The notes below the pieces were generated by a model that did no database searches, had not been told where the DNA came from, and saw nothing but the letters and a program-made list of their open reading frames with translations. A stretch of 64,000 nt of DNA. It comes from Candidatus Poribacteria bacterium. Its GTDB lineage: Bacteria; Poribacteria; WGA-4E; UBA9662. The position numbers and the translations under genes are program-made. Numbering within the stretch: position 1 is the stretch's first letter; each line of letters opens with the position of its first letter. The DNA lies in assembly GCA_036339735.1 (NCBI GenBank), contig JAYZAL010000100.1:35419-99418 (forward strand), written 5' to 3'. This document shows positions 10,780 to 23,443 of this stretch, piece by piece.

Positions 10780-11418
10780 ATGCTAGGTAAAATTAATGAG
10801 AAAATTTTAATTGGTCTTGAAATATTGGCTTCTCAGGACTCAAAGATGGCAAAACTAATCCAATTTTATGGGAATCCACAAATTGATCCTAAGCCAGAAA
10901 GTCATTTTAGCTCATTAGTCAGATCCATAGTTTATCAACAATTAAGTGGGAAGTCAGCTTCCGCAATATACAAAAGATTAAGACAGTTATATTTTGAAAA
11001 ACCCGATTTCGAACCTGAGGAGATTTTTCAAACAGATGATTCAGTTCTGAAGAGTGTCGGTTTATCAGCCCGAAAGGTTGCTTACATTAAAGAATTAGCT
11101 TGGCATTTTCTATCCGGTAAAATTAACATAGGTAATAATTCAAATGAGACCGAAATTAGAAATACATTGATCGCTATTAAGGGGATTGGTCCATGGACAA
11201 TCGATATGTTTTTAATTTTCAAAATGTCTAGATTGGACATTTTTCCTGACTCTGACCTCGGCGTCAAAAAGGGATTACAAATTTTATTACAGTTGAAATC
11301 TAGTCCGACCAAAGAACAAATAGCCAACATTTCAAACCAATGGCGCCCCTACCGCACACTGGCAACTTGGTACTTGTGGAAAATAGCCGACTATGGATTA
11401 CCCAAAGATTTGCATTAA
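10780..11418 (+). CDS. alkA: DNA-3-methyladenine glycosylase II (HhH-GPD)
   Basis: 'LVRSIVYQQLSGKSA', 'GLSARK..YI', HhH 'IKGIGPWT', 'PDSDLG', 'WRPYRT.A.WYLW'. Confidence 0.88.
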   Translation: MLGKINEKILIGLEILASQDSKMAKLIQFYGNPQIDPKPESHFSSLVRSIVYQQLSGKSASAIYKRLRQLYFEKPDFEPEEIFQTDDSVLKSVGLSARKVAYIKELAWHFLSGKINIGNNSNETEIRNTLIAIKGIGPWTIDMFLIFKMSRLDIFPDSDLGVKKGLQILLQLKSSPTKEQIANISNQWRPYRTLATWYLWKIADYGLPKDLH

Positions 11419-11628
11419 TTGACAAATCAGATAGCCATAATTTCTCAATTCTCAAAAGTATTTGATCAAAATTAAAGAAGGTCGATCTCAAGCCAGTTTA
11501 GAATTGGCACAACCCTCCAAGTGATCTGCCACCAAGTCGAGGAACCAGTTTGTGCTAGAATAAATTGCAGAGCTATACATAAATCATTGAAGAAGGATAT
11601 ACAAGTAAACAGAAATAGACTCAATAAA

Positions 11629-12708
11629 CTAAACTAGCTTGTCTACTACATCTGTATTCAATCGTTGTAAGAGCAAGAGTAATAGGGCCTTAGTGGAATT
11701 GTAATCATCAATGTTCATAATTGAGATGTGGCTGTGGATGTATCTTGTAGGTACACCGAGTACAATTGTAGGAATACCATAACGACTTTTGTGTATAGCT
11801 GCGGCGTTCGTTCCACCCGAATTCCGAACTGCAATTTGGTGGGGAATAGCGTGCTGAACAGCGATTTCAATAACCAAATCGGCTAGAATGGGATTCGCAA
11901 TGTGAGTGGGATCGAATAGCCGAATTTGGCATCCACCTCCTAATCTTCCTTGTGACGCGTCTTGCTCAAAACCAGGCAGGTCATCTGCAGGTGGAGCCTC
12001 CAATACAATCGCCACGTCAGGTCGAATCATTTCGGTCATTGTAATTGCCCCCCTCACTCCGACTTCTTCCTGTACGGACCCAACACCAATTATAGTATTA
12101 GGATGAGCAGAGGCTTTTGCTAGTTCTTTCAAAGTTTCGATTACTAAGGCGACAGCAATTCGGTTATCGAATGCTTTGGCGGAATACAGTTTGGGGTTCT
12201 TTAGGCTCTGAAAACTGGTAGCTGGTACTACCGGGCAACCAGGACGAATTCCATATTCTTCCTCGGCCTGTCTTTGATTTTCGGCACCGACATCAATATA
12301 AAGATCATTGATATCTAATACCTTGTTTTTAGCACTATCACCCAATAGATGAGGTGGGGTAGAGCCGATAATGCCAATAACTTTTTGTTGATTTATCTTC
12401 GATAAAATTCGTACCTTTTGGGCGAGTAGTGTGTGTGTCCACCAGCCACCCAAATTGATAAATTTCACAAAACCACTCGATGTTACCCTTTGAACCATGA
12501 ATCCAACTTCATCGACATGAGAATCAATTAACACACGTGGGCCAGCCGAACGACCTGGCACCATACAGGATATACCACCCATTTTGTCTTGCTTTAGTTC
12601 ACCTATACCTGTTAAGTGATCACGAAAGATATTTGTGACTTCTCGCTCGTAGCCGGGAACCGCATCGGCATTAGTTAAAGTTTTCAGTAAATCGACTGAT
12701 TGAGCCAT
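11629..12708 (-). CDS. M42-family metallo-aminopeptidase
   Basis: 'PGYEREV', 'SHVDEVGFMV', 'LGGWW', 'KAFDNR', 'QEEVGVRGA', 'GGTNA', 'RYIHS'. Confidence 0.9.
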   Translation of the reverse strand: MAQSVDLLKTLTNADAVPGYEREVTNIFRDHLTGIGELKQDKMGGISCMVPGRSAGPRVLIDSHVDEVGFMVQRVTSSGFVKFINLGGWWTHTLLAQKVRILSKINQQKVIGIIGSTPPHLLGDSAKNKVLDINDLYIDVGAENQRQAEEEYGIRPGCPVVPATSFQSLKNPKLYSAKAFDNRIAVALVIETLKELAKASAHPNTIIGVGSVQEEVGVRGAITMTEMIRPDVAIVLEAPPADDLPGFEQDASQGRLGGGCQIRLFDPTHIANPILADLVIEIAVQHAIPHQIAVRNSGGTNAAAIHKSRYGIPTIVLGVPTRYIHSHISIMNIDDYNSTKALLLLLLQRLNTDVVDKLV

Positions 12709-12731
12709 TTTTCAACTACCCTGTCATTAGA

Positions 12732-13541
12732 TTAATGTTGACTTTGATTGTCTACAGCTTGAGAAACTTTGTATTGCAAAAAACGCGGACAAACAGCGTT
12801 GAGCAGAGGAATCCATTTTAACTTGCTCGGTAGATACATTTTTTGTTTTCCTGTTTTGATCGCAGTCAAAATTGACTGAGCACATTCATCGACTTCAATT
12901 GATTCCTTATTGTGTGATCGTTTTTGCGTTCCCATCGGCAATCCTTCTAAGTTAAAGGCATTTTGCCTCAGGTTGGTACCACGAATCCAGCCCAAGTAAA
13001 TGTGTAAAAAGCGAACCATTCCTTTCATCTCAATTTCTAAGGATGCCAAGAACCCTTGAAGAGCATGTTTTGAGGCAGCGTAGCCAGTATGTTCAGGAAA
13101 TCCCATTAAAGCTTGGGCTGTGGACATTTGAGCGATTAAGCCCTGATTCTTTTTGAGATGGGGCAACGCAGACTTCACGCAGTGAACTGCCCCCATATAA
13201 TTTATATCAATCAAGGATTGAAAGAATTGTACATCTTTGATACTTTCGAAATCTGACCACATGCTGATTCCAGCATTCAAAACTAAAACATCAAGTTTCT
13301 CAAACGTGTCAATTGTTTCTTTAACTAAATTTTCGCACTGCTCAGAATCGGTAATATCAGTAGGAATAGCCAAAGCTGTACCACCACTGCTATTGATATC
13401 GGAGGCCAATTCCAACAGCTTGGATTCCGTTCTCGCGGCTAATACAACTGATGCTCCATTGAGGCTTGCTCTTTTCGCTAAAGTAGCTCCAATACCTGAA
13501 GATGCACCCGTGATAACAATTGTTTTCTTATTTAGTTGCAT
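12732..13541 (-). CDS. Classical SDR oxidoreductase (DHRS7-like); candidate acyl/alkyl-DHAP reductase
   Basis: 'ITGASSGIG', 'AAR' (NADPH-type), 'LNAG', 'YAASK'. The specific function is inferred from operon context. Confidence 0.85.
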   Translation of the reverse strand: MQLNKKTIVITGASSGIGATLAKRASLNGASVVLAARTESKLLELASDINSSGGTALAIPTDITDSEQCENLVKETIDTFEKLDVLVLNAGISMWSDFESIKDVQFFQSLIDINYMGAVHCVKSALPHLKKNQGLIAQMSTAQALMGFPEHTGYAASKHALQGFLASLEIEMKGMVRFLHIYLGWIRGTNLRQNAFNLEGLPMGTQKRSHNKESIEVDECAQSILTAIKTGKQKMYLPSKLKWIPLLNAVCPRFLQYKVSQAVDNQSQH

Positions 13542-13562
13542 GTGATATTTGCTTGATTCTAT

Positions 13563-15317
13563 TCAATCTGCTAATACATTATTGCGAATACCAAATACGT
13601 TATTAGGGTCGTGGGAAACTTTCAATTGTCTTATTAGTTCAATACTTGCAGGAGACATAGTGTCAGGTAAAAAATCTTTTCTGAGTTTACCAACACCGTG
13701 GTGATGAGAAATTGAGCCACCGTTCTTCATGATTTCTTCGCGCATAGCATGCTCTATAGAACCAAAAACTACTTCCGGGTCCTTGATTCCTTTCATATAC
13801 ATCCCAAACATGAAGTAAATACAAACACCAGTATGATAGATCTGCGGAATCCGATATGAGAGATACGGTTGTCCAGGAATATTGTGTTCTTCGTGTAGCT
13901 CGAATAATTTATCTTTGGTTTTTTGGCAGACTTGGCGAATTTTACTCCAAGGCACTGATGTCTCCATAGTTTCCCCAATGATATGGTAGTTGGAGAGAAA
14001 GTCTCTAATATAAGCAATCGCGAAAGTGAGCATATACCCTCTTTTACCATTTTCTGGCCCAGCTGGTAATCCCTGATGCTGCTTAGATAATTCGAGAATG
14101 TTCTGTTTTTGGTAAGCAACTTCCTTGGATGCACCTTCCATAACAAAAGTAACTGCACACATCTGGTAAGGATCAAATCCTTTTACCTGAGTGACAAAAA
14201 GCTTTTGCAGGCGTAACATCAATTTTTTAAATCCTTCTGGATGTGGTTTCAGGGCTTGGCCGAAACGGAACTGGATATTATCCACCAATCGAACACTGGC
14301 CGGAATGTAGTTGGTACGAGAAAGTGCCTGAAGGAAATCGACTCCTTTCTGCCAACTAGGAAAGACTGCAGAGGCGTACTCTTGTACTTCAGGTAGTTTG
14401 TGTATCTTGATTACAGCTCTAGTGATAAGTCCTAAATTGCCTTCACTTCCAAATAATAAGTTTTGTGGACGCATCCCCATCGAAACACGCGTGGTCGCTT
14501 GGTTTTGTTCCAATATACCTCTGGGCGTAATTACGGTAATATTTTCAACAATATCTTCAATGTTACCGTATCGGTTTTTTTTCATCCCACTAGCTTGAGT
14601 GGCAATCCAACCACCCAGGGTGGAAAATTCTATGCTATCTGGTTCATGTCCAACCATGTATCCTTGATTACGTAGTTCTTCCTCTAGCTTGGATCCAGTT
14701 ATGCCAGCTTGTACGCACGCACGACCATCTTCGGTATTCACCCACTCAATTTTGTCCATACGACGTGTGTCAATAGCTACGATCATCCTATTTTCAGATT
14801 TTGGTAGTTTGAGGGCACTACTGACACTAGTTCCGCCTCCAAAAGGAACTAGACAAATATCGTGATCTTCAGCAAGCCGAATGAGTTCTACTACTTCTTC
14901 GTCTGACTCGGCATAAAAGACCATGTCGATTGCTTTATCGATCTGACCATATAGGATTTTATAAACTTCTTCTGAAGTAGTTTGTCCATGACTATGGAGC
15001 AAACGATCGACAGAATCCACTGAATAACGATCAGGAGGGAACGTTGATTCTACGGCGGACAAGAAATCTGGATTAATTTGAGGCAGCGGGACGGGCTTAT
15101 GCTCAACTTCAGGTAAAACATCGTCAGGATCGACCTTGATTTGCAGAGATTCCTCGACATAAGGAATAAAGTCAGGCATTACCATCCCACACAGATCATA
15201 TCGGTCTCCTGACAATGTAATAGTTCTATCCTTATGCAAAATAAATTCGGAATCACGAAAGCCCCACTTGTGTCCCCAAGTTTCACCATTAGTGGCGACA
15301 AATTTTTGATCGGCCAT
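13563..15317 (-). CDS. agpS: Alkyl-dihydroxyacetonephosphate synthase (FAD-linked, AGPS/ADPS)
   Basis: 'KWGFRDSEF', 'PFGGGTSVS', 'GHEPDSIEFSTLGGWIATQASGMKKNRYGNIED', 'GSEGNLGLIT', 'PASVRLVDNIQF.FGQALKP', 'GYMLTFAIAYIRDF', 'GGSISHHHGVGKLRK'. Confidence 0.93.
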   Translation of the reverse strand: MADQKFVATNGETWGHKWGFRDSEFILHKDRTITLSGDRYDLCGMVMPDFIPYVEESLQIKVDPDDVLPEVEHKPVPLPQINPDFLSAVESTFPPDRYSVDSVDRLLHSHGQTTSEEVYKILYGQIDKAIDMVFYAESDEEVVELIRLAEDHDICLVPFGGGTSVSSALKLPKSENRMIVAIDTRRMDKIEWVNTEDGRACVQAGITGSKLEEELRNQGYMVGHEPDSIEFSTLGGWIATQASGMKKNRYGNIEDIVENITVITPRGILEQNQATTRVSMGMRPQNLLFGSEGNLGLITRAVIKIHKLPEVQEYASAVFPSWQKGVDFLQALSRTNYIPASVRLVDNIQFRFGQALKPHPEGFKKLMLRLQKLFVTQVKGFDPYQMCAVTFVMEGASKEVAYQKQNILELSKQHQGLPAGPENGKRGYMLTFAIAYIRDFLSNYHIIGETMETSVPWSKIRQVCQKTKDKLFELHEEHNIPGQPYLSYRIPQIYHTGVCIYFMFGMYMKGIKDPEVVFGSIEHAMREEIMKNGGSISHHHGVGKLRKDFLPDTMSPASIELIRQLKVSHDPNNVFGIRNNVLAD

Positions 15318-15333
15318 AATAATACTTTACCTC

Positions 15334-18300
15334 TTATTGGTTATTACTTAAGTCCATTTTGGCTTGGGACTGCAAGTTTATAATTGCATCTCTAACATGG
15401 TTCGCAATTTGCCTGTATTTTTGGTGAGTATTGCCCGCTTTTAAAATATAGTCTGCTGTTGGTCTGATTGGTGAGCCAAAACTAACACTGATATTATTAG
15501 GCTGCGGGAAATTTTGCCCCTTTGGTAAGGCTTGATAACTGCCCTTAATGTAGGCTGGAATAATCGGTACTTTTGCTTCATAAGATAAGAGACCCAAACC
15601 TGACCGGAACTCTTGCACTTCACCTGTGATGGATCGTGTGCCTTCTGGATAAATTAGCAATGCGTAACCATTACTTAACGCTTCTTGAGCAATTCGTACG
15701 CCTTGCAGAAAATTGTCTGTTCGATCCAAAGGTAACACGTTCATTAGTTGACCAAAGAACCATGATTTGAATGAGGTGTTAAAAAAGTAGTCTCGGGCAC
15801 CAAGAACCTTCAGACGTTCAGACTCATTGCCCAAAGCTGTTATAATAGCGCCTGTATCCAAGTGGCTAGAGTGATTAGGTGCGATTATGTATGGCTCATT
15901 TTGAGGGATATAATTGAGACCTTCTGCCCGGAAGGAAAAGACTTGCTTATAGATAATACCCATCCCCAAACGAAAAATTTTGGCCTGAGTGTTATTCTGG
16001 AGATCGGCTTGATGAGAATTCACCTTAGTTAGTGATGGTAAAGGCTCTTTTGAAGATTGTAATGTATTTATAACAGCAACAACATCACCTACAGTTTTTA
16101 TATTTGTGACCAGATTATCAGGTAATATTCGACCCAGTTCGCCTTCTAGTATCAGCAAAAGTTCTACTTGCATTAAAGAATCTAGGCCAAGATCTCCTTC
16201 TAAGTCGGTGCCTTCATTAATCTGATGGCTTGGGACACGGGCAATTCGGGATAACTCGGCAACAATTCGACTGAGTGGTGTATCGGTGGGTTTTATCCCC
16301 GTTTGATTGTCCTTTGTTTTCTGGCTATAATAATCCTCTATTAATTCTTTTATAATTTGGCGATCGACTTGACCTGATTGGTTTTTTGGCAAATTCCGTG
16401 CACGGTCAGTTACCCCGGTCCCTACAGGATTAATCGGCCAGAAGTGAGTTTTATGCACACGTTGATAGCTTGGTAATTCGCTCGCACAAGACCGCACATG
16501 TTCAAGAATTGTAGGTTCATCAGCGTCTTCGGAAGGAACTATAACAGCATAAACCTCCTCCCCAATTTCATCATTGGCTAAACGGCCAACAATGCAAATC
16601 TCTTTTATGTAGTCATGCTTTCCGTAAAGTATTTCTAGTTCGCTGGGATAAATGTTTTTACCCGCTCCTGACACAATGACATCTTTTGTTCGACCTGTTA
16701 GAAATAAATAACCGTCATCATTAAGATAGCCTAGATCTCCGCTGTAGAGTTTGCTAGATTTTAGTACCTTTTCGGTCGCGGTTGGATTATTGAAATAACC
16801 TAACATTAAGCTTGGAGATTCGATGATGATTTCTCCGATACCATTTGAATCAGGCTGATCGATTTTAAGTTGCACACCATCTAGCAAAACTCCAACGGAA
16901 GAACGTAAGCTTTTTTGGTAAGGATTTACGCTAACAACAGGTGCAGTTTCTGTCAAACCATAACCTTGATATAGAACAACACCTAGCTCTAGATAGTTGT
17001 CGTAGACACTGTCTGGGAGTGTCGACCCTCCACTAACCAAGACTCTGAGGCTCTGTCCTACAGATAGGTGAATTTGTTTAATTTGTTCTTGTGTTAACCG
17101 TGGATTCCCTTCATCTGCACGAATTTTTAAGACATATCTTTGTAAACTATCATAAATCATCTTAAATAAACGCGGAACACCAATCATAACTGTTGTCTTG
17201 GTCTCTTTCATCGTTTCTAAAATGATATTGGGGCGTAAAGAATTTAGATATGTTATTGTTGAACCGCTATAAATTGACATTAAAAAGCCACAGGTAAACT
17301 CCAAGGCATGATAAAGTGGCAAAACTGACAGAAAACGATCTTCGGATTGAGGAGGCAACTGTTGTGCTACCGCTAAAACATTGGTAATAAAGCTCCGATG
17401 TGATAGTATCACGCCTTTCGGATCATAGGCAGTACCAGAAGTGAATATGATCGAAGTAATGTCATCAGGTTTAATTTCAACCACTGGCAACTCAATAGAG
17501 GACCCTATCACATCTTCCATTCTTTCACATTCAGCTTGGATATCGCGAATCTCAATTATCTGATTGATCCCACTAGTTAACTCATCTTTGGCCTGTTCAA
17601 GTCGTTCGATCAAATCTGAAGTTGTGAAGATAGCTCTTGCTGAAGTGAAACGCAATAGTGCGTAAACTTCATTGACCGGCGTTTGGCGATCAATGGGTAC
17701 AATTACCATCCCTAATTTAGCGCAAGCTAAATATATAATCCCCCATTCAGGCTGATTATCAGCGAATAGTAAAATTCGATCGGATGGGCGGTATCCATTT
17801 TGCCATAGGCTCCCTGTGATTCTATTCGATAACTCCTCGAATTGACGATAAGTGTAGGTGACCCATTGTTCATTGCGCTTGATTTGTAGCGCGACTTTAT
17901 CAGGTACTTTTTCAGCTTGATAACTGAGCAGTTCCGGAATGGTTTCGAATTGTTGATGTTCACTTACTCTGTTTTTGATTTTTGATTTTTCACTGACACT
18001 ATCTTTATCTTGGATATCTTTCGATTCGGAATCATTGTCATTTGCTCCAGTTGATTCCATATTCAATACGAAACGTTTAATTCCTGGAATATGGACTCGC
18101 TGTAGGTAATCATCCCAATTGAAACTAGAAGCATCAAAGTTGAAGAGGCCTTGTTCTTCAACGGATAATGATCGATGCAAAGCTAATGTCCTGCTAGCTT
18201 CGAATTGATAGTCAAGCCGTACATATGCCCCGTAGATTTTGACGTAATAGAGTAAGCGTTCCAGAGATTTTTGGATTATTGAAAGCTGTCTGCTTTTGCG

Positions 18301-19557
18301 CTTTGACCAGCTAAAAGGTAATTTCTGCAACCACTTTTTGCTATTATCAATTTGTGTATACTTGCCCTCAAAATATCGATTAAAAGAAGTTAAGTCCCTA
18401 AATTTCCATTCTTTTGGTACAATGGATTTGCCATTTCGATCTACCATTGGGTTATTATGAAAATAGGTTTTAGTAGCTCTGTAGAAGGATTGAAACTGGA
18501 TAGGATTAATCGTTCCACTTGCAACTTGGTACACAGCTATCTCTGATACATCGAAAGCTTTTGCCGAGGCCGCTAAGATTGCGTTTACGACTAGGTCGAC
18601 CGGAATCACATCTATCACAATGTCTGGCTTCGCTGGAAAATCAGGCAATCTGCCCTTACCAAAACCTATGATAAGTGGGTCAGCCATTCGTAAGCCATCG
18701 AGCCAGCCAGGAACAGGCTCTTGCCAACTACTTTCAATTATGGAGGGACGCACAATTGCGACGGAGAGATTTTCACATGTTTTCGCAACTATTTGTTCAC
18801 CTAAGTATTTAGTGTAGGTATAAATATCGTTCCACCCGCGAGCCTTGGCATGTTCCAGCCCCGCTTCAATTAGTTCATTCTTCAAATCATTAGCAGGCAA
18901 TTTCGAATCACGGCGAATGTTGGCTCCAATAGCCAACATGTGTTCAAGTTCTTCTTGAATGGTTAGTGGAATATCAACCCCGTTTGACTGTAGTCGGTTG
19001 GCAATTTCTTCGTAGGTTGGATGAAGTTCTTCTGCTACTTCGCCAGGCTTGCTACCACAAGAGTAGGCTGTCGAAATATGGACAAACACGGCGTTGGGGC
19101 AGACACTTGCCAACTCAACCGATCGTTGAGCAGAAATGACGTTCATTAGGACAGCGTCATCAATTGGTGAGTCGAACTCAACAATCGCAGCACTATTAAT
19201 GAAAATTTGCACTTCAGCTGCGAGCTGCTGATAGTCAGAATCAGACAAACCTAGTTTTTCTCTGCTTAGATCCCCCTCGACAGCAAAGACTTTTTCTCGT
19301 ATCCATGCATGAAAATTAGATCCATGAATACTTTTCAGTTGATCAAATACGTGTGACTCGAAGAACTTTGAGAGCCTTTCTTCGGCCGAGACCGTCACAC
19401 CATTTACATTAGTTCGACTACGAATTAATAAGTAGACTTTTTTAACTTGGGGTATGGTCGTTAAAATTTTCGCGACTAGTGGTTGACCGACAAATCCGGT
19501 TGCTCCTGTGATTAGAACGATTTTATCCTGAAATGTCTGACTGATGCTCGTTTTCAT
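15334..19557 (-). CDS. ElbD-like multidomain enzyme: fatty acyl reductase + adenylation (acyl-CoA synthetase-like) + carrier protein + PlsC-type acyltransferase
   Basis: FAR: 'ITGATGFVG', 'HISTAY', 'YTYTKYLGE', 'IVRPSIIES', 'DVIPVDLVVN', 'FDASSFNWDDY'. Adenylation: 'FTSGT..PKG', 'GYGLTE', 'SGDLG'. Carrier: 'DLGLDSL'. Acyltransferase: 'NHSSHLD', 'YPEGTRS'. Confidence 0.9.
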   Translation of the reverse strand: MKTSISQTFQDKIVLITGATGFVGQPLVAKILTTIPQVKKVYLLIRSRTNVNGVTVSAEERLSKFFESHVFDQLKSIHGSNFHAWIREKVFAVEGDLSREKLGLSDSDYQQLAAEVQIFINSAAIVEFDSPIDDAVLMNVISAQRSVELASVCPNAVFVHISTAYSCGSKPGEVAEELHPTYEEIANRLQSNGVDIPLTIQEELEHMLAIGANIRRDSKLPANDLKNELIEAGLEHAKARGWNDIYTYTKYLGEQIVAKTCENLSVAIVRPSIIESSWQEPVPGWLDGLRMADPLIIGFGKGRLPDFPAKPDIVIDVIPVDLVVNAILAASAKAFDVSEIAVYQVASGTINPIQFQSFYRATKTYFHNNPMVDRNGKSIVPKEWKFRDLTSFNRYFEGKYTQIDNSKKWLQKLPFSWSKRKSRQLSIIQKSLERLLYYVKIYGAYVRLDYQFEASRTLALHRSLSVEEQGLFNFDASSFNWDDYLQRVHIPGIKRFVLNMESTGANDNDSESKDIQDKDSVSEKSKIKNRVSEHQQFETIPELLSYQAEKVPDKVALQIKRNEQWVTYTYRQFEELSNRITGSLWQNGYRPSDRILLFADNQPEWGIIYLACAKLGMVIVPIDRQTPVNEVYALLRFTSARAIFTTSDLIERLEQAKDELTSGINQIIEIRDIQAECERMEDVIGSSIELPVVEIKPDDITSIIFTSGTAYDPKGVILSHRSFITNVLAVAQQLPPQSEDRFLSVLPLYHALEFTCGFLMSIYSGSTITYLNSLRPNIILETMKETKTTVMIGVPRLFKMIYDSLQRYVLKIRADEGNPRLTQEQIKQIHLSVGQSLRVLVSGGSTLPDSVYDNYLELGVVLYQGYGLTETAPVVSVNPYQKSLRSSVGVLLDGVQLKIDQPDSNGIGEIIIESPSLMLGYFNNPTATEKVLKSSKLYSGDLGYLNDDGYLFLTGRTKDVIVSGAGKNIYPSELEILYGKHDYIKEICIVGRLANDEIGEEVYAVIVPSEDADEPTILEHVRSCASELPSYQRVHKTHFWPINPVGTGVTDRARNLPKNQSGQVDRQIIKELIEDYYSQKTKDNQTGIKPTDTPLSRIVAELSRIARVPSHQINEGTDLEGDLGLDSLMQVELLLILEGELGRILPDNLVTNIKTVGDVVAVINTLQSSKEPLPSLTKVNSHQADLQNNTQAKIFRLGMGIIYKQVFSFRAEGLNYIPQNEPYIIAPNHSSHLDTGAIITALGNESERLKVLGARDYFFNTSFKSWFFGQLMNVLPLDRTDNFLQGVRIAQEALSNGYALLIYPEGTRSITGEVQEFRSGLGLLSYEAKVPIIPAYIKGSYQALPKGQNFPQPNNISVSFGSPIRPTADYILKAGNTHQKYRQIANHVRDAIINLQSQAKMDLSNNQ

Positions 19558-19684
19558 GAGAGAAGAAAATCACCTTCTGCTTTTTGTGTCGTATCAAGTC
19601 GACTTAAACTAATACTAAAATGGGCTATGGTATTCTTTGAATGGGCTTGCGCTTGCGGATACGTCCGAAGGGTTGCAGACTGCA

Positions 19685-19714
19685 AGTATAAGAAAATACT
19701 GATCGAGATGTCAA
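19685..19714 (-). promoter_or_regulatory. Candidate sigma70 promoter of the ether-lipid operon
   Basis: Minus-strand TTGACA (19714-19709), 18-nt spacer, TATACT (19690-19685); implies a leader of about 120 nt before ATG 19557. Confidence 0.55.
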
Positions 19715-19773
19715 TGACAAAACATTTTATCATATTTTATCTAGTTTCATGCGAAAAGAATAAACACTAAGAC

Positions 19774-21090
19774 TTATGGAAAAATATCTGTTAAAGCTAA
19801 AAAAAGCGAATTTATCAATTGATCTATCTCGTCAGTTGTTATAGATAGAGGAGGCATCAGTACAATAGTATTAACCAATGGTCGTAAAATCAGTCCATGT
19901 TTTAAGGCTGCTTGGCATACCCTTATACCTGCCTTTTCTTCAAATTCGAACTCTATCTTGTTTTTTTTGTCTTTTAGAAGTTCAAAAGCGCCAATTAGCC
20001 CAATCGAACGGAGATTACCTACATTTTTATGAGCTGCAAAAATGTTAAGGCGCTCTTTAAAATAGGTAATTTTTTCATCTAATATCAGAAAGAAATTTGG
20101 ATCTTTAAGTAGTCTCAAATTTGCTAATGCAACAGATGCTCCTAGCTGGTTGCCGGTGTAAGTATGACCATGGAAAAAAGTTTTGAGTTGCGTATAATCC
20201 CCCAAAAAAGCCTCGTAAATTCTTTCTGTTGTTAGGGTTGCAGCTAAAGGCAGATAACCACCTGTCAAACCTTTTGCAGTACACAAGATGTCAGGAGATA
20301 CCTCCTCATGCTGACAGGCCCACATACGGCCGGTTCGTCCTAATCCCGTCATCACCTCGTCAACAATAAACAGGATGTCATACTTTAATGCTAACTGCTC
20401 TATCCCTTTTAAAAAACCTCTAGGATGCATAATCATGCCACCTGCACCTTGGACCAAAGGCTCAACAATGATACCTGCTAACAACCCTCGATGTTCATCG
20501 AATATTTGCTCCATTGAATCTAAGCAGACCTCAAGATTACCTTCTTGGCTATGATAGGGAACGGGCGCAGAAATCGAAGGAAAAGTCAAAGGCAAAAAAG
20601 TTTGGTGAAAGAGTGAAATCCCCCCGACACTTACGGCACCTAGTGTGTCTCCATGATAAGCTTGATCTAAGTGTACAAATTGAGTACGTTTTGGTTGACC
20701 CACATGTTGCCAATACTGACAGGCGATTTTCAATGCAACTTCTACAGAAGTAGAGCCATTATCTGAAAAAAAAGTGCGGGTTAAGTTTGGTGGAGCTAAC
20801 GCAACTAACTCCTTAGCTAACTTAATCGCTGGTACATTAGAAAATCCTAGGAGCGTCGAGTGGGCTATTTTTTCAATTTGTTCTATTAGAACCTGATTCA
20901 ATTTTGGGTGATTATGTCCGTGGATATTCGTCCACATAGACGAAATCCCATCAATATAACGATTACCCTCGACGTCAAATAAAAATATTCCTTCTCCTCT
21001 TTCGATTATGCAAACTGACTCTTTTTCCAAGTCAGCCATCTGGGTGAAAGGGTGCCATAAAAATAACTTGTCCCACTGTTCGAGTGTCAT
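19774..21090 (-). CDS. bioA: Adenosylmethionine-8-amino-7-oxononanoate aminotransferase
   Basis: 'WHPFTQM', 'YIDGISSMW..IHGH', 'SDNGSTSVEVALKIA', 'YHGDT.GA', 'DEVMTG.GRTG', 'AKGLTGGYLPL', 'FFHGHTYTGN'. Confidence 0.93.
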   Translation of the reverse strand: MTLEQWDKLFLWHPFTQMADLEKESVCIIERGEGIFLFDVEGNRYIDGISSMWTNIHGHNHPKLNQVLIEQIEKIAHSTLLGFSNVPAIKLAKELVALAPPNLTRTFFSDNGSTSVEVALKIACQYWQHVGQPKRTQFVHLDQAYHGDTLGAVSVGGISLFHQTFLPLTFPSISAPVPYHSQEGNLEVCLDSMEQIFDEHRGLLAGIIVEPLVQGAGGMIMHPRGFLKGIEQLALKYDILFIVDEVMTGLGRTGRMWACQHEEVSPDILCTAKGLTGGYLPLAATLTTERIYEAFLGDYTQLKTFFHGHTYTGNQLGASVALANLRLLKDPNFFLILDEKITYFKERLNIFAAHKNVGNLRSIGLIGAFELLKDKKNKIEFEFEEKAGIRVCQAALKHGLILRPLVNTIVLMPPLSITTDEIDQLINSLFLALTDIFP

Positions 21091-21193
21091 TGGTTCCTTA
21101 TCCTTAAATTGACTGGTAAACTTTCGCTGTGTTTTTCATGTTTACAGTAGGTAGAATATAATCTATCTAAACACGTAATTATATCATTTCTAT

Positions 21194-23443
21194 GTGGACT
21201 CAAGGTACATGCGAAAAATGAAATGCACTCGTTTAGTCCTGTTACTTGTTTCTTTTATCCTTCTGTGTTCGACAGATTTGGTTCTTGGTCAAAGAATTTC
21301 AAAAAAAATCCTCACTGAAGGTGAAGGTAATTTCACTGCACCTATTACTGTCGGAAAAGGCATGCCTTTTTCTATCACTTTTAACGAAATTGAAATCATT
21401 ACAGAAGTGAATATTTCTAGTACGGACTTTAGTAGTACGGTCAAATCGAGTAGCGGGACAATCGACGGGGAACCCCTCACCATTACTTTAGCTCCGGGAA
21501 CCTACACAATTAAAGAAACATACTACGGCTCTGTGGGAGCAGCAAAAACGTTGATTCCTATTCCAACTCTTGAGATACCTGAGATTGTTATCGAGCGGAA
21601 ACTTTCAGTGGGAGCCTTAAGCGAATATACCATTGAGCTCGCGACTACTATTTACAATTTGAGAGTGAAATTGGATGGTGATTTTGAAGGTAGCATGCGT
21701 ATTCGAGAAACAGTTGGAAACCAAGTAGTAGTTCCATTCAAAAGTGTTAAGAAATTGAATAAAGGAACGGAAATTACCTATCAGGCCGAGTTCTCCGCCT
21801 TTGCCGCATCAGAAACCAAGATTAGTAGCCGAGAAATTGTGACACCGGAAGTCTCTCTTAGCTTAAATTCAGATAATCAGATAAAAATCAATTGGTATCA
21901 AATACCAGGTGCGGAAAGCTACCAAGTCTACCGTTCTCTTACACCAACACCTGATTTGGGTAGTATCGATCCAATAGCGAGAGGAGTTACAGAAACCACG
22001 TTTGTTGATGCAAGCGCCGACCTGAATACAGTTTATTACTACAGTGTTTCGGCTATTGGCTTGAATGGTGGTATTCCACAAATAGCAGCAGATGTACCCA
22101 ATGCTACGTTGTGGATTAATGAGAATGGTAGTACATGTGAATACATCGACGGTACAAAAATTGTTTTTCCAGCGAACTTAGCTGGTACTTCCGAGAATCT
22201 TTATTTGGCTTCAGTATCCACGATATCCAACGACTCGGTCATAAAGCTTGAATCTGCTATCGATGAAAAATCTTATGTCGTGTCGATTTTTGGGCAAAAC
22301 CCAGTTTTTAACTTTGATTCGTCAGCTCGTTTAACACTGAAATACTCTGATGGAATAGATAATGAGGTTACAACCCCCCAAATTTTTGCCTTGCGAGGTA
22401 ATAAATGGATACGATTAGTCAACCAAACAACTGACTTAGATAATAACACTGTAACTGCTGACATCAAATCACCAGGTATATATAGTTTAGCCTCATTTGA
22501 GATTAACAAAACTACAGAAAACCCTTGGGACATCAATAGAGACAGCAACGTTAACATATTTGACTTAGTACTAGTTGCAGGTCAGTTTGGTGAGAATGGA
22601 AAAAACTTGAAAGGTGATATTAACGGAGACAATAGTGTTAACATATTCGATTTAGTCTTGGTTGCGAGTCATTTTGGCGAAACTTACGATTCTGCTGCTC
22701 CTACTGTTTTTACTTCCAATTTAGCACCTAGTTTTGAGGTTAGTTTGAGGAGTATTTCAGCTGACAAACGTGATACAACGACTTTTCAGATTCTAATTGA
22801 TGGACTTGACTCTTTAGAACAATTAGCCGGATATCAAGTAACTATCTGCGGATTGGAAAACGATTTAAGGGTTATTGATGCAGGGTCAGTCTTTTTACCC
22901 AGATCGACGTATTCAGTTCCGAACCAACGCAGAGGAGACCAAGTAACAATTAGTGCAGTTGCTTATGGTAAAAAAAATAATAAATCTAAAATTTATACGA
23001 AAGAGCAAGCTGTTTTGACTACATTTCAGTTGAGTAGCGAAGAGAAGGGTATTAGGCTACAGAATGTTCTTCTTTCCAATGTAGATGGTAATTCCATTCC
23101 ATTGGTTATCAATACAGATATTCAGACAACATTGAATGAACATTTGCCAATCAAAACGGAGGTCAAACAGAATTACCCTAATCCGTTCAATCCTGAAACC
23201 TGGATTCCTTTTTCTGTCGATTCAGATACTGTTGTTCGATTAATCGTTTACAACTACGGTGGAGCAGTAATAAGAGAAATCGATTTAGGTGTGGTCAGTC
23301 AAGGCCGTTATATAAATAAAGACGAAGCAATACATTGGGATGGCCGAAATCAGTATGGTGAAGAGGTTGCTAGTGGGGTTTATTTCTACCGTTTGCATAC
23401 CACAAATACTACTTCAGCTAAAAAAATGACCATAATGAAATAA
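21194..23443 (+). CDS. Secreted modular protein: FN3, ZU5-like, dockerin pair, cohesin-like, FlgD-Ig / T9SS-like C-terminal domain
   Basis: Signal peptide; FN3 'INWYQIPGAESYQVYRS...YYYSVSA'; duplicated 'DINRDSNVNIFDLVLVA' / 'GDINGDNSVNIFDLVLVA'; tail 'QNYPNPFNPETWIPF...WDGRNQYGEEVASGVYFYRL'. Start is uncertain (GTG 21194 or a downstream ATG). Confidence 0.8.
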   Translation: MDSRYMRKMKCTRLVLLLVSFILLCSTDLVLGQRISKKILTEGEGNFTAPITVGKGMPFSITFNEIEIITEVNISSTDFSSTVKSSSGTIDGEPLTITLAPGTYTIKETYYGSVGAAKTLIPIPTLEIPEIVIERKLSVGALSEYTIELATTIYNLRVKLDGDFEGSMRIRETVGNQVVVPFKSVKKLNKGTEITYQAEFSAFAASETKISSREIVTPEVSLSLNSDNQIKINWYQIPGAESYQVYRSLTPTPDLGSIDPIARGVTETTFVDASADLNTVYYYSVSAIGLNGGIPQIAADVPNATLWINENGSTCEYIDGTKIVFPANLAGTSENLYLASVSTISNDSVIKLESAIDEKSYVVSIFGQNPVFNFDSSARLTLKYSDGIDNEVTTPQIFALRGNKWIRLVNQTTDLDNNTVTADIKSPGIYSLASFEINKTTENPWDINRDSNVNIFDLVLVAGQFGENGKNLKGDINGDNSVNIFDLVLVASHFGETYDSAAPTVFTSNLAPSFEVSLRSISADKRDTTTFQILIDGLDSLEQLAGYQVTICGLENDLRVIDAGSVFLPRSTYSVPNQRRGDQVTISAVAYGKKNNKSKIYTKEQAVLTTFQLSSEEKGIRLQNVLLSNVDGNSIPLVINTDIQTTLNEHLPIKTEVKQNYPNPFNPETWIPFSVDSDTVVRLIVYNYGGAVIREIDLGVVSQGRYINKDEAIHWDGRNQYGEEVASGVYFYRLHTTNTTSAKKMTIMK

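Follow-up and report, generated by a model that had tools for sequence, protein, structure and literature searches.

A 64,000-nucleotide stretch of a Candidatus Poribacteria genome (contig JAYZAL010000100.1, positions 35,419 to 99,418; hereafter the window) carries three adjacent genes which, in our interpretation, encode an oxygen-tolerant pathway to 1-O-alkyl glycerolipids centred on alkyl-dihydroxyacetone-phosphate synthase (AGPS). We put the probability of this interpretation at about two in three. The first gene encodes a four-domain protein resembling ElbD of Myxococcus xanthus, the second AGPS itself and the third a classical short-chain dehydrogenase/reductase (SDR). Bacterial alkyl glycerol ethers are environmental and geological markers whose aerobic biosynthesis is poorly understood, and the occurrence of ElbD in operon order with a borrowed AGPS-SDR pair offers a testable hypothesis: ElbD would supply both the fatty alcohol and the acyl-dihydroxyacetone phosphate (acyl-DHAP), and the SDR would fill the vacant role of a bacterial alkyl-DHAP reductase. 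As far as our literature search reaches, what is new here is the physical coupling of an apparently vertically inherited ElbD-type protein to an apparently horizontally acquired AGPS-SDR pair, the mutually exclusive pattern of ElbB (a hydrolase-type protein of elb gene clusters) and AGPS-SDR within one phylum, an independent grouping of ElbD-like, AGPS and SDR genes in Acidobacteriota, and the probably widespread use of the AGPS-SDR pair with exchangeable supply enzymes.

Predicted activities of the three proteins

The assignment that can be made most firmly is that of the 584-residue protein. It carries the Pfam domains FAD_binding_4 and FAD-oxidase_C, and its residues 16-579 align over 564 residues with guinea-pig AGPS (4bby) at approximately 50% identity (E 2.6e-153). 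The Dictyostelium enzyme (2uuu) follows at E 5.9e-92, and the next flavoenzyme families, D-lactate dehydrogenase and others, at E 1e-26 or weaker. R343, Y501 and H538-540 of the window's protein align with R419, Y578 and H615-617 of 4bby, which we take to be the catalytic residues of the guinea-pig enzyme. In a set of 33 bacterial sequences, R343, Y501, H539 and H540 never vary, and H538 hardly does. By architecture and full-length similarity, the identification of this protein as AGPS (EC 2.5.1.26) comes close to being shown.

The 1407-residue protein unites a fatty acyl reductase (FAR), an acyl-CoA/ACP ligase, an acyl carrier protein (ACP) domain and an acyltransferase within one chain, which is the layout of ElbD. 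All of its domains exceed the Pfam cut-offs except AMP-binding_C (21.2 bits against 24.5). The NAD_binding_4 and Sterile domains together make up a eukaryote-type fatty acyl reductase; this part matches the solved fatty acyl-CoA reductase 7eoz (E 2.7e-79) and contains the motifs TGATGFVG (GxxGxxG) and YTYTK (YxxxK). There is no second strong FAR in the window's genome, where the next NAD_binding_4 match reaches 28 bits compared with 232. The carrier domain has a GLDSL serine motif, and one AcpS-type phosphopantetheinyl transferase is encoded in the same genome. The acyltransferase domain (PF01553) has the HX4D and EGTR blocks seen in GNPAT-like sequences, and in an alignment of 34 acyltransferase sequences the His and Asp of HX4D (NHSSHLD), the EGTR block and the arginine of IPxDR are all invariant. 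It is 45-53% identical to the acyltransferase domains of other poribacterial ElbD proteins, 40-42% to the acyltransferases of Acidobacteriota and Cyanobacteria and 25-29% to those of Marinimicrobia.

The 269-residue protein matches adh_short (PF00106) at 160 bits, exceeds the NCBIfam PRK06181 cut-off and has the motifs of a classical SDR, namely TGASSGIG (TGxxxGxG), YAASK (YxxxK) and VLAAR, with an arginine after strand beta-2. We assume the rule that a basic residue at this place indicates NADPH, by which the arginine suggests NADPH use. Its neighbours in the protein atlas are only unnamed bacterial SDR clusters. A functional link to AGPS is indicated by its position directly behind the AGPS gene and by an SDR tree that mirrors the AGPS tree (see below). 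Most of these assignments agree with an initial annotation of the window made from its letters and open reading frames (ORFs). The fusion of FAR, adenylation, carrier and acyltransferase domains was confirmed by Pfam, and its ElbD-like layout by the four domains given in the accessible text of PMC9131029 (FAR1-like, acyl-CoA synthetase (ACS), ACP and an acyltransferase resembling 1-acylglycerol-3-phosphate acyltransferase (AGPAT)); the alkyl-DHAP synthase was upheld by the match to 4bby with its corresponding residues, and the NADPH-type SDR, at the level of motifs, by PF00106, PRK06181 and the arginine.

Together these activities would make up a four-step route. Within the ElbD-type protein, the ligase domain would activate a free fatty acid and load it onto the carrier domain of the same chain. 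Judging from the domain families, the N-terminal FAR would then reduce part of the acyl pool to fatty alcohol and the C-terminal HX4D acyltransferase would acylate DHAP to give 1-acyl-DHAP. AGPS would swap the acyl group for the alcohol, creating the ether bond; this is the best supported step, given the similarity to the animal enzyme and the conserved catalytic residues. Finally the SDR, in a role suggested by conserved gene linkage, would use NADPH to reduce the 2-keto group of alkyl-DHAP, and the resulting 1-alkyl-glycerol-3-phosphate would be taken over by ordinary phospholipid enzymes. We assign the SDR and the acyltransferase their roles from conserved linkage, and infer the routing inside ElbD. 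The PlsA/Ger family (PF09989) had no match in the window's source assembly (4.32 Mb, 92% complete), while the control matched in four genomes including Thermotoga, so this genome gave no sign of the anaerobic route.

AGPS neighbourhoods in other phyla

A survey of bacterial genomes (one per species) returned 221 AGPS relatives, of which the nearest 80 were kept and their flanks scanned with the window's domains. An SDR orthologue, defined by a score of 150 bits or more against the window's SDR and a position directly downstream on the same strand, follows AGPS at 60 of the 80 loci. Three loci have no room for one and 17 have none; these 17 are mostly labelled Cyanobacteria or Chloroflexota, and some have a weaker SDR at this position. 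Directly upstream of AGPS, a stand-alone acyltransferase of about 250 residues is present at 40 loci, and five more have no room. The initial annotation had called for a survey of this kind, and the linkage of an acyltransferase upstream and an SDR downstream fits the division of labour which it had proposed.

This linkage bears on a narrower role for ElbD, in which its FAR would provide the alcohol only, its acyltransferase would be an AGPAT acylating the sn-2 position of 1-alkyl-glycerol-3-phosphate, and a housekeeping enzyme would make acyl-DHAP. The acyltransferase of ElbD is indeed annotated as AGPAT-like in the accessible part of the literature (PMC9131029), PF01553 covers both activities, and a PlsC-like gene is also present in the window's genome. 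However, it is presumably the acylation of DHAP for which ordinary lipid synthesis in bacteria has no enzyme, while sn-2 acylation could fall to PlsC, and a dedicated acyltransferase placed directly upstream of AGPS at so many loci is what would be expected of an enzyme that makes an AGPS substrate. With a Marinimicrobia cassette acyltransferase as query, the best match was the ElbD acyltransferase domain in all five genomes searched from the window's family (f1; 77-100 bits). The second match was a PlsC-like gene (35-44 bits) in three of them, and two genomes of genus g2 gave no match besides ElbD. Because the search found only the ElbD domain and this distant PlsC-like gene, no other candidate acyltransferase was found in the five genomes, even in the two (G003 and G005) in which ElbD is unlinked to AGPS. 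We regard the narrower role as unlikely, and retain ElbD as the putative source of both AGPS substrates.

A four-domain ElbD-like gene occurs at five of the 80 loci, two from the window's genus and three from Acidobacteriota. At the three acidobacterial loci, an ElbD-like gene of 1454-1471 residues is convergent with AGPS-SDR at a distance of 0.1 to 2.3 kb; a fourth acidobacterial locus ends at a contig edge. In these Acidobacteriota (L085, 13964-19178; L097, 14955-20343; L099, 4373-9647) a diacylglycerol-kinase/YegS-like gene precedes the ElbD-like gene, and in L097 a DUF3943 protein is encoded between the ElbD-like gene and AGPS-SDR.

Elsewhere the candidate supply enzymes are different. At both Marinimicrobia-type loci that were opened (L033, 8080-12567, labelled 'uncultured bacterium' only; L036, 8104-12574, labelled Marinimicrobia), an HMG-CoA-reductase-like gene lies directly upstream of acyltransferase-AGPS-SDR. 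HMG-CoA-reductase-like enzymes have been characterised as the fatty acyl-CoA reductases FcrA, with AGPS near some of them according to the accessible text of PMC11948995. A stand-alone FAR lies about 2 kb upstream of AGPS at six loci, five of them labelled Latescibacterota. One latescibacterial locus (L104, 7952-9889) has a 645-residue ORF with no Pfam match between the stand-alone FAR and AGPS, which could be an unrecognised acyltransferase or carrier. A Nostoc sp. metagenome-assembled genome (MAG; L084, 4491-13457) carries a run of eight genes encoding a FAAL-type ligase, a fatty-acid desaturase, an ACP, a NAD_binding_4 reductase, an acyltransferase, AGPS, an SDR-like protein and CdsA, and resembles an ElbD whose modules are encoded one by one, combined with AGPS and a head-group step. 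The reductase of this run also carries a TubC_N docking domain. Judged by gene order, the alcohol-making partner of AGPS differs between phyla, and the AGPS-SDR pair appears to be a general one with swappable supply enzymes.

Gene history within the Poribacteria

Within the phylum set of 176 genomes, the window's order comprises 41, seven in family f1 and 34 in families f2-f4. AGPS (E at most 1e-50) is present in all seven f1 genomes and in none of the 34 of the sister families, nor in any of the 169 genomes of the phylum outside f1. The ElbD-like gene is found in 40 of the 41 genomes, as one orthologue per genome: in all 34 of f2-f4 and in six of the seven in f1, where it is missing only from an 85%-complete genome. 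The orthologue of ElbB, a haloacid dehalogenase (HAD)-type protein (PF12710, E at most 1e-45), shows the reverse pattern to AGPS, with 34 of 34 genomes in f2-f4 and none in f1. The f1 genomes have only a paralogue at 33-36% identity, which is present as a second copy in the other families too. The ElbB-like gene lies directly downstream of elbD in the four f2-f4 loci that were opened, and its coordinates abut elbD in the rest. At one f4 locus (L126, 6207-7058), an enoyl-ACP-reductase-type SDR gene is found directly upstream of elbD-elbB.

The three genera of f1 arrange these genes differently. In genus g1 (three genomes) BioA is followed by ElbD-AGPS-SDR-M42, and in g3 (one genome) ElbD-AGPS-SDR is followed by a sigma-54 regulator; in both genera AGPS-SDR occupies the place held by elbB in other families. 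In g2 (three genomes) AGPS-SDR stands apart from elbD, which is on a different contig in two genomes and was not found in the third, the 85%-complete one. Where g2 elbD is present (L028, 6564-8842; L029, 6681-8965), it is followed in both genomes by a formyltransferase and a squalene-hopene-cyclase-like gene. Co-location of the three genes in related genomes had been set beforehand as a test, and its outcome was mixed: all three are adjacent in three of the six other f1 genomes, but in two more only AGPS and the SDR stand together, and in the sixth ElbD was not found. Among public sequences, the nearest relative of the locus (97% identity in AGPS) is labelled Candidatus Poribacteria bacterium, which fits the marine, Poribacteria-like source expected at the outset.

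Phylogenies were built in quick mode under LG+G4 and with no outgroup, the tested group being defined by genome taxonomy and not by the tree. The ElbD tree (13 rows, rooted on Acidobacteriota) follows genome taxonomy, with an f1 clade (SH-aLRT 98) that is sister to f2-f4. In the AGPS tree (85 rows) the f1 sequences are split between two fully supported clades: g1 and g3 fall within a clade of 32 rows otherwise mostly labelled Marinimicrobia, and g2 groups with Latescibacterota and others. A single f1 clade of AGPS is rejected by the approximately unbiased (AU) test (p 5.8e-7). The SDR tree is divided in the same way (AU p 8.7e-7). Because the ElbD tree follows taxonomy while the AGPS and SDR trees split f1, ElbD appears to be an old gene of the phylum that was inherited vertically, and AGPS-SDR a mobile two-gene module that would have entered f1 from outside at least twice, from different sources. 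In g1 and g3 the module would have come to lie immediately after the part of elbD that encodes the acyltransferase, at the elbB position, and so have reproduced the acyltransferase-AGPS-SDR order of other phyla. Two entries of the AGPS tree sit on very short branches beside differently labelled sequences, that of a MAG labelled Rhizobium sp. (L051) beside Pseudanabaena and that of one labelled Anaerolineae (L079) beside Marinimicrobia; these bins are probably mislabelled or contaminated.

Several points weigh against reading the cluster as one pathway. The roles given to all of these proteins are predicted from sequence. The SDR resembles no solved enzyme in particular (the PDB entries that it matches best are generic ketoreductases, E 1e-24 to 1e-17), and the preference of the acyltransferase for DHAP or glycerol-3-phosphate cannot be read from its sequence, to which is added the AGPAT-like annotation already mentioned. 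The separation of AGPS-SDR from elbD in g2 is a further difficulty. The opposed occurrence of ElbB and AGPS sets one clade against the rest and so amounts to one or two evolutionary events, not to statistical support. Contigs from RNA libraries that match the region (described below) may stem from carried-over DNA, and one of them covers the promoter-like site upstream of elbD. Lastly, ElbD works with no AGPS partner both in M. xanthus and in the order's other families; it must therefore have some AGPS-independent role, and the adjacency could be an accident of landing.

If so, AGPS-SDR was inserted beside elbD by chance, ElbD keeps its own route and AGPS is fed by other enzymes. The foreign origin of the pair and its two acquisitions, its position away from elbD in g2, and the occurrence of ElbD without AGPS throughout f2-f4 are all in keeping with this account. 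It leaves unexplained, however, why the ElbB-like partner was found in none of the seven f1 genomes that bear AGPS, and it calls for feeding enzymes of which neither another cassette-type acyltransferase (five of five f1 genomes searched) nor another strong FAR (the window's genome) came to light. Moreover, Acidobacteriota independently cluster the same three kinds of genes, and the gap between elbD and AGPS in the window is only 16 bases long and contains a Shine-Dalgarno-like GAGG. We consider chance adjacency rather improbable, and continue to favour a joint pathway of ElbD, AGPS and the SDR.

The initial annotation went further and had the locus join the two bacterial routes into one. What stands is a local hybrid only: all 34 genomes of the order's other families have ElbD and ElbB but no AGPS, so ElbD does not generally need AGPS. 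A broader scheme is conceivable, in which ElbD would be a general front end that provides fatty alcohol and acyl-DHAP, the ether-forming elb step and AGPS-SDR would be interchangeable back ends, and pelagic Poribacteria would have swapped elbB for AGPS-SDR in place. We offer this tentatively, as a possibility that is more doubtful than the pathway itself. If it is true, the same ElbD with different back ends would be a natural experiment on AGPS-free ether bond formation. The sister lineages with ElbD-ElbB in any case provide matched gene sets for comparison, and free-living marine Poribacteria become, beside Marinimicrobia, candidate sources of 1-O-alkyl glycerolipids in seawater.

Layout of the locus and comparison with known systems

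The features of the locus are collected in Table 1. That the three genes are co-directional, with gaps of 16 bases (elbD-like/AGPS) and 21 bases (AGPS/SDR), had been noted initially and was confirmed from the ORFs and by reading the gaps directly. The genes of the proposed three-gene cluster are real, but a fourth co-directional gene, for an M42 aminopeptidase, had been overlooked 23 bases after the SDR. We rejected this peptidase as a member of the pathway, since the SDR-M42 order is confined to the three genomes of genus g1 and the arrangement is different in g3 and g2. The remaining flanking genes encode BioA, an MraY-like transferase, a class IV aminotransferase, an HhH-GPD protein and a dockerin/FlgD_ig protein, and are unrelated to lipids. 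The last of these (21194-23443, plus strand) is 749 residues long, combines dockerin type I and FlgD Ig-like domains, and is divergent from bioA.

Table 1. Genes, domains and promoter-like match of the cluster, in window coordinates.
Feature	Position	Strand	Basis
elbD-like gene, 1407 aa	15334..19557	(-)	ORF and Pfam domains
FAR domain of elbD-like gene	18061-19512	(-)	NAD_binding_4 (residues 16-327) and Sterile (426-499), Pfam
Acyl-AMP/ACP ligase domain of elbD-like gene	16438-17922	(-)	AMP-binding (residues 546-922) and AMP-binding_C
ACP domain of elbD-like gene	16069-16269	(-)	PP-binding (residues 1097-1163)
HX4D acyltransferase domain of elbD-like gene	15544-15930	(-)	Acyltransferase PF01553 (residues 1210-1338)
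agps, alkyl-dihydroxyacetone-phosphate synthase, 584 aa	13563..15317	(-)	Pfam and alignment to solved AGPS
Classical SDR, 269 aa, proposed acyl/alkyl-DHAP reductase	12732..13541	(-)	Pfam, NCBIfam and linkage to AGPS
M42 aminopeptidase (glutamyl-aminopeptidase family) gene, probably a passenger	11629..12708	(-)	Pfam
Sigma-70-like promoter match TTGACA-18-TATACT	19685..19714	(-)	Consensus match, about 128 bases upstream of elbD-like gene

A good sigma-70 promoter had also been claimed. The match exists, at 11 of 12 positions, and is the top one within 11300-21400, but such sites are no more frequent in this region than in shuffled sequence (20 found, 24.6 expected), so we treat it as a consensus match only. 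A scan for terminators gave no convincing candidate, either in the gaps of the cluster or behind it. Four marine metatranscriptome libraries from four studies contain contigs that match parts of every gene in the region at 95-100% identity. Individual contigs span the AGPS-SDR junction (13412-13604) and the SDR-M42 junction (12591-12902), or extend from elbD 26 bases into AGPS (15292-15832). Another (19452-19768) runs across the promoter-like site, which accordingly gains no support as a transcription start. Stretches that such contigs leave uncovered, for example 17980-18303 in three runs, carry no evidential weight. At most, these contigs are a hint of expression that gives neither strand nor start.

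The neighbours of the cluster include no indicated head-group or neutral-lipid enzyme, which is relevant to the end product. Instead of membrane alkyl-glycerophospholipids, the locus might serve neutral alkyl-diacylglycerols or, after desaturation, plasmalogens, and both neutral and vinyl ether lipids are products of the M. xanthus routes according to the accessible text of PMC9131029. Besides the lack of any such enzyme at the locus, CarF/PEDS1 (PF10520) had no match in the window's genome, but the control likewise matched in no genome. We think such a product very improbable, and keep to membrane alkyl-glycerophospholipids as the predicted one.

Two ether-lipid gene sets of M. xanthus are the nearest described counterparts, and both are known to us from the accessible portions of PMC9131029 and of PMC13012113 (bioRxiv 10.1101/2025.10.10.681575). 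The elbABCDE operon encodes ElbD (FAR/ACS/ACP/AGPAT-like), the HAD-type hydrolase ElbB, and ElbA and ElbE of the NAD-dependent epimerase/dehydratase type, and is said there to contain no apparent AGPS candidate. MXAN_1676-1675-1674 encodes AGPS, a two-domain FAR+GNPAT protein and a NAD-dependent epimerase/dehydratase-type protein. The initial annotation was right to place the myxobacterial AGPS outside the elb cluster, but it missed that this AGPS has a three-gene operon of its own with a FAR+GNPAT fusion and a reductase. Because that operon is described, the literature already contains a complete AGPS pathway predicted from a single bacterial operon, and the headline of the initial annotation is not new. 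So far as the accessible texts go, ElbD and AGPS have been treated as independent routes and screened separately (PMC11868695; PMC13159169; PMC13012113; bioRxiv 10.64898/2026.06.23.733905). The last of these reports MAGs of Poribacteria, Acidobacteriota and Latescibacterota that have matches to both elbD and agps, and its accessible text does not describe adjacency. No description of an elbD-agps-SDR cluster turned up in our literature search.

Compared with MXAN_1676-1675-1674, the window's cluster likewise has three genes, an AGPS, a protein in which FAR and HX4D acyltransferase are fused, and a NAD(P)-type reductase, with the same predicted peroxisome-like logic. The cluster has neither the two-domain FAR+GNPAT fusion nor the extended SDR of that operon, however: its fusion adds acyl-activating and carrier domains between FAR and acyltransferase, its reductase is a classical SDR (PF00106, PRK06181) and not of the extended epimerase/dehydratase type, and its gene order is supply protein, AGPS, SDR, the comparison being made with the M. 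xanthus proteins as described. With M. xanthus ElbD the window's protein shares the four-domain layout, again as described in the accessible text of PMC9131029. Clusters of elbD and elbB are reported for sponge Poribacteria (bioRxiv 10.64898/2026.06.23.733905, accessible text), and the window's ElbD is, by its tree, a vertical orthologue of the elbD that adjoins the elbB-like HAD gene in all 34 f2-f4 genomes. The locus differs from elb clusters in that no elbB-, elbC- or elbE-like gene is a neighbour; its elbD is flanked by BioA, AGPS, SDR and M42 (elbE was not searched for genome-wide), with AGPS-SDR in the place of elbB.

The acyltransferase-AGPS-SDR cassettes of Marinimicrobia have the same gene order and contain the closest relatives of the window's AGPS (61-71% identity) and SDR. 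Their acyltransferase, in contrast, is a stand-alone protein of about 248 residues that is only 25-29% identical to the window's domain, and their alcohol probably comes from the HMG-CoA-reductase-like, FcrA-type enzyme. The peroxisomal ether-lipid pathway of animals consists of FAR1/2, GNPAT, AGPS and DHRS7B (PexRAP). The window's cluster would carry out the same four predicted chemical steps, with an AGPS about half identical to the animal enzyme and a FAR that includes the Sterile domain, but would do so with no organelle and with acyl chains that are probably held on a built-in carrier and not as CoA esters.

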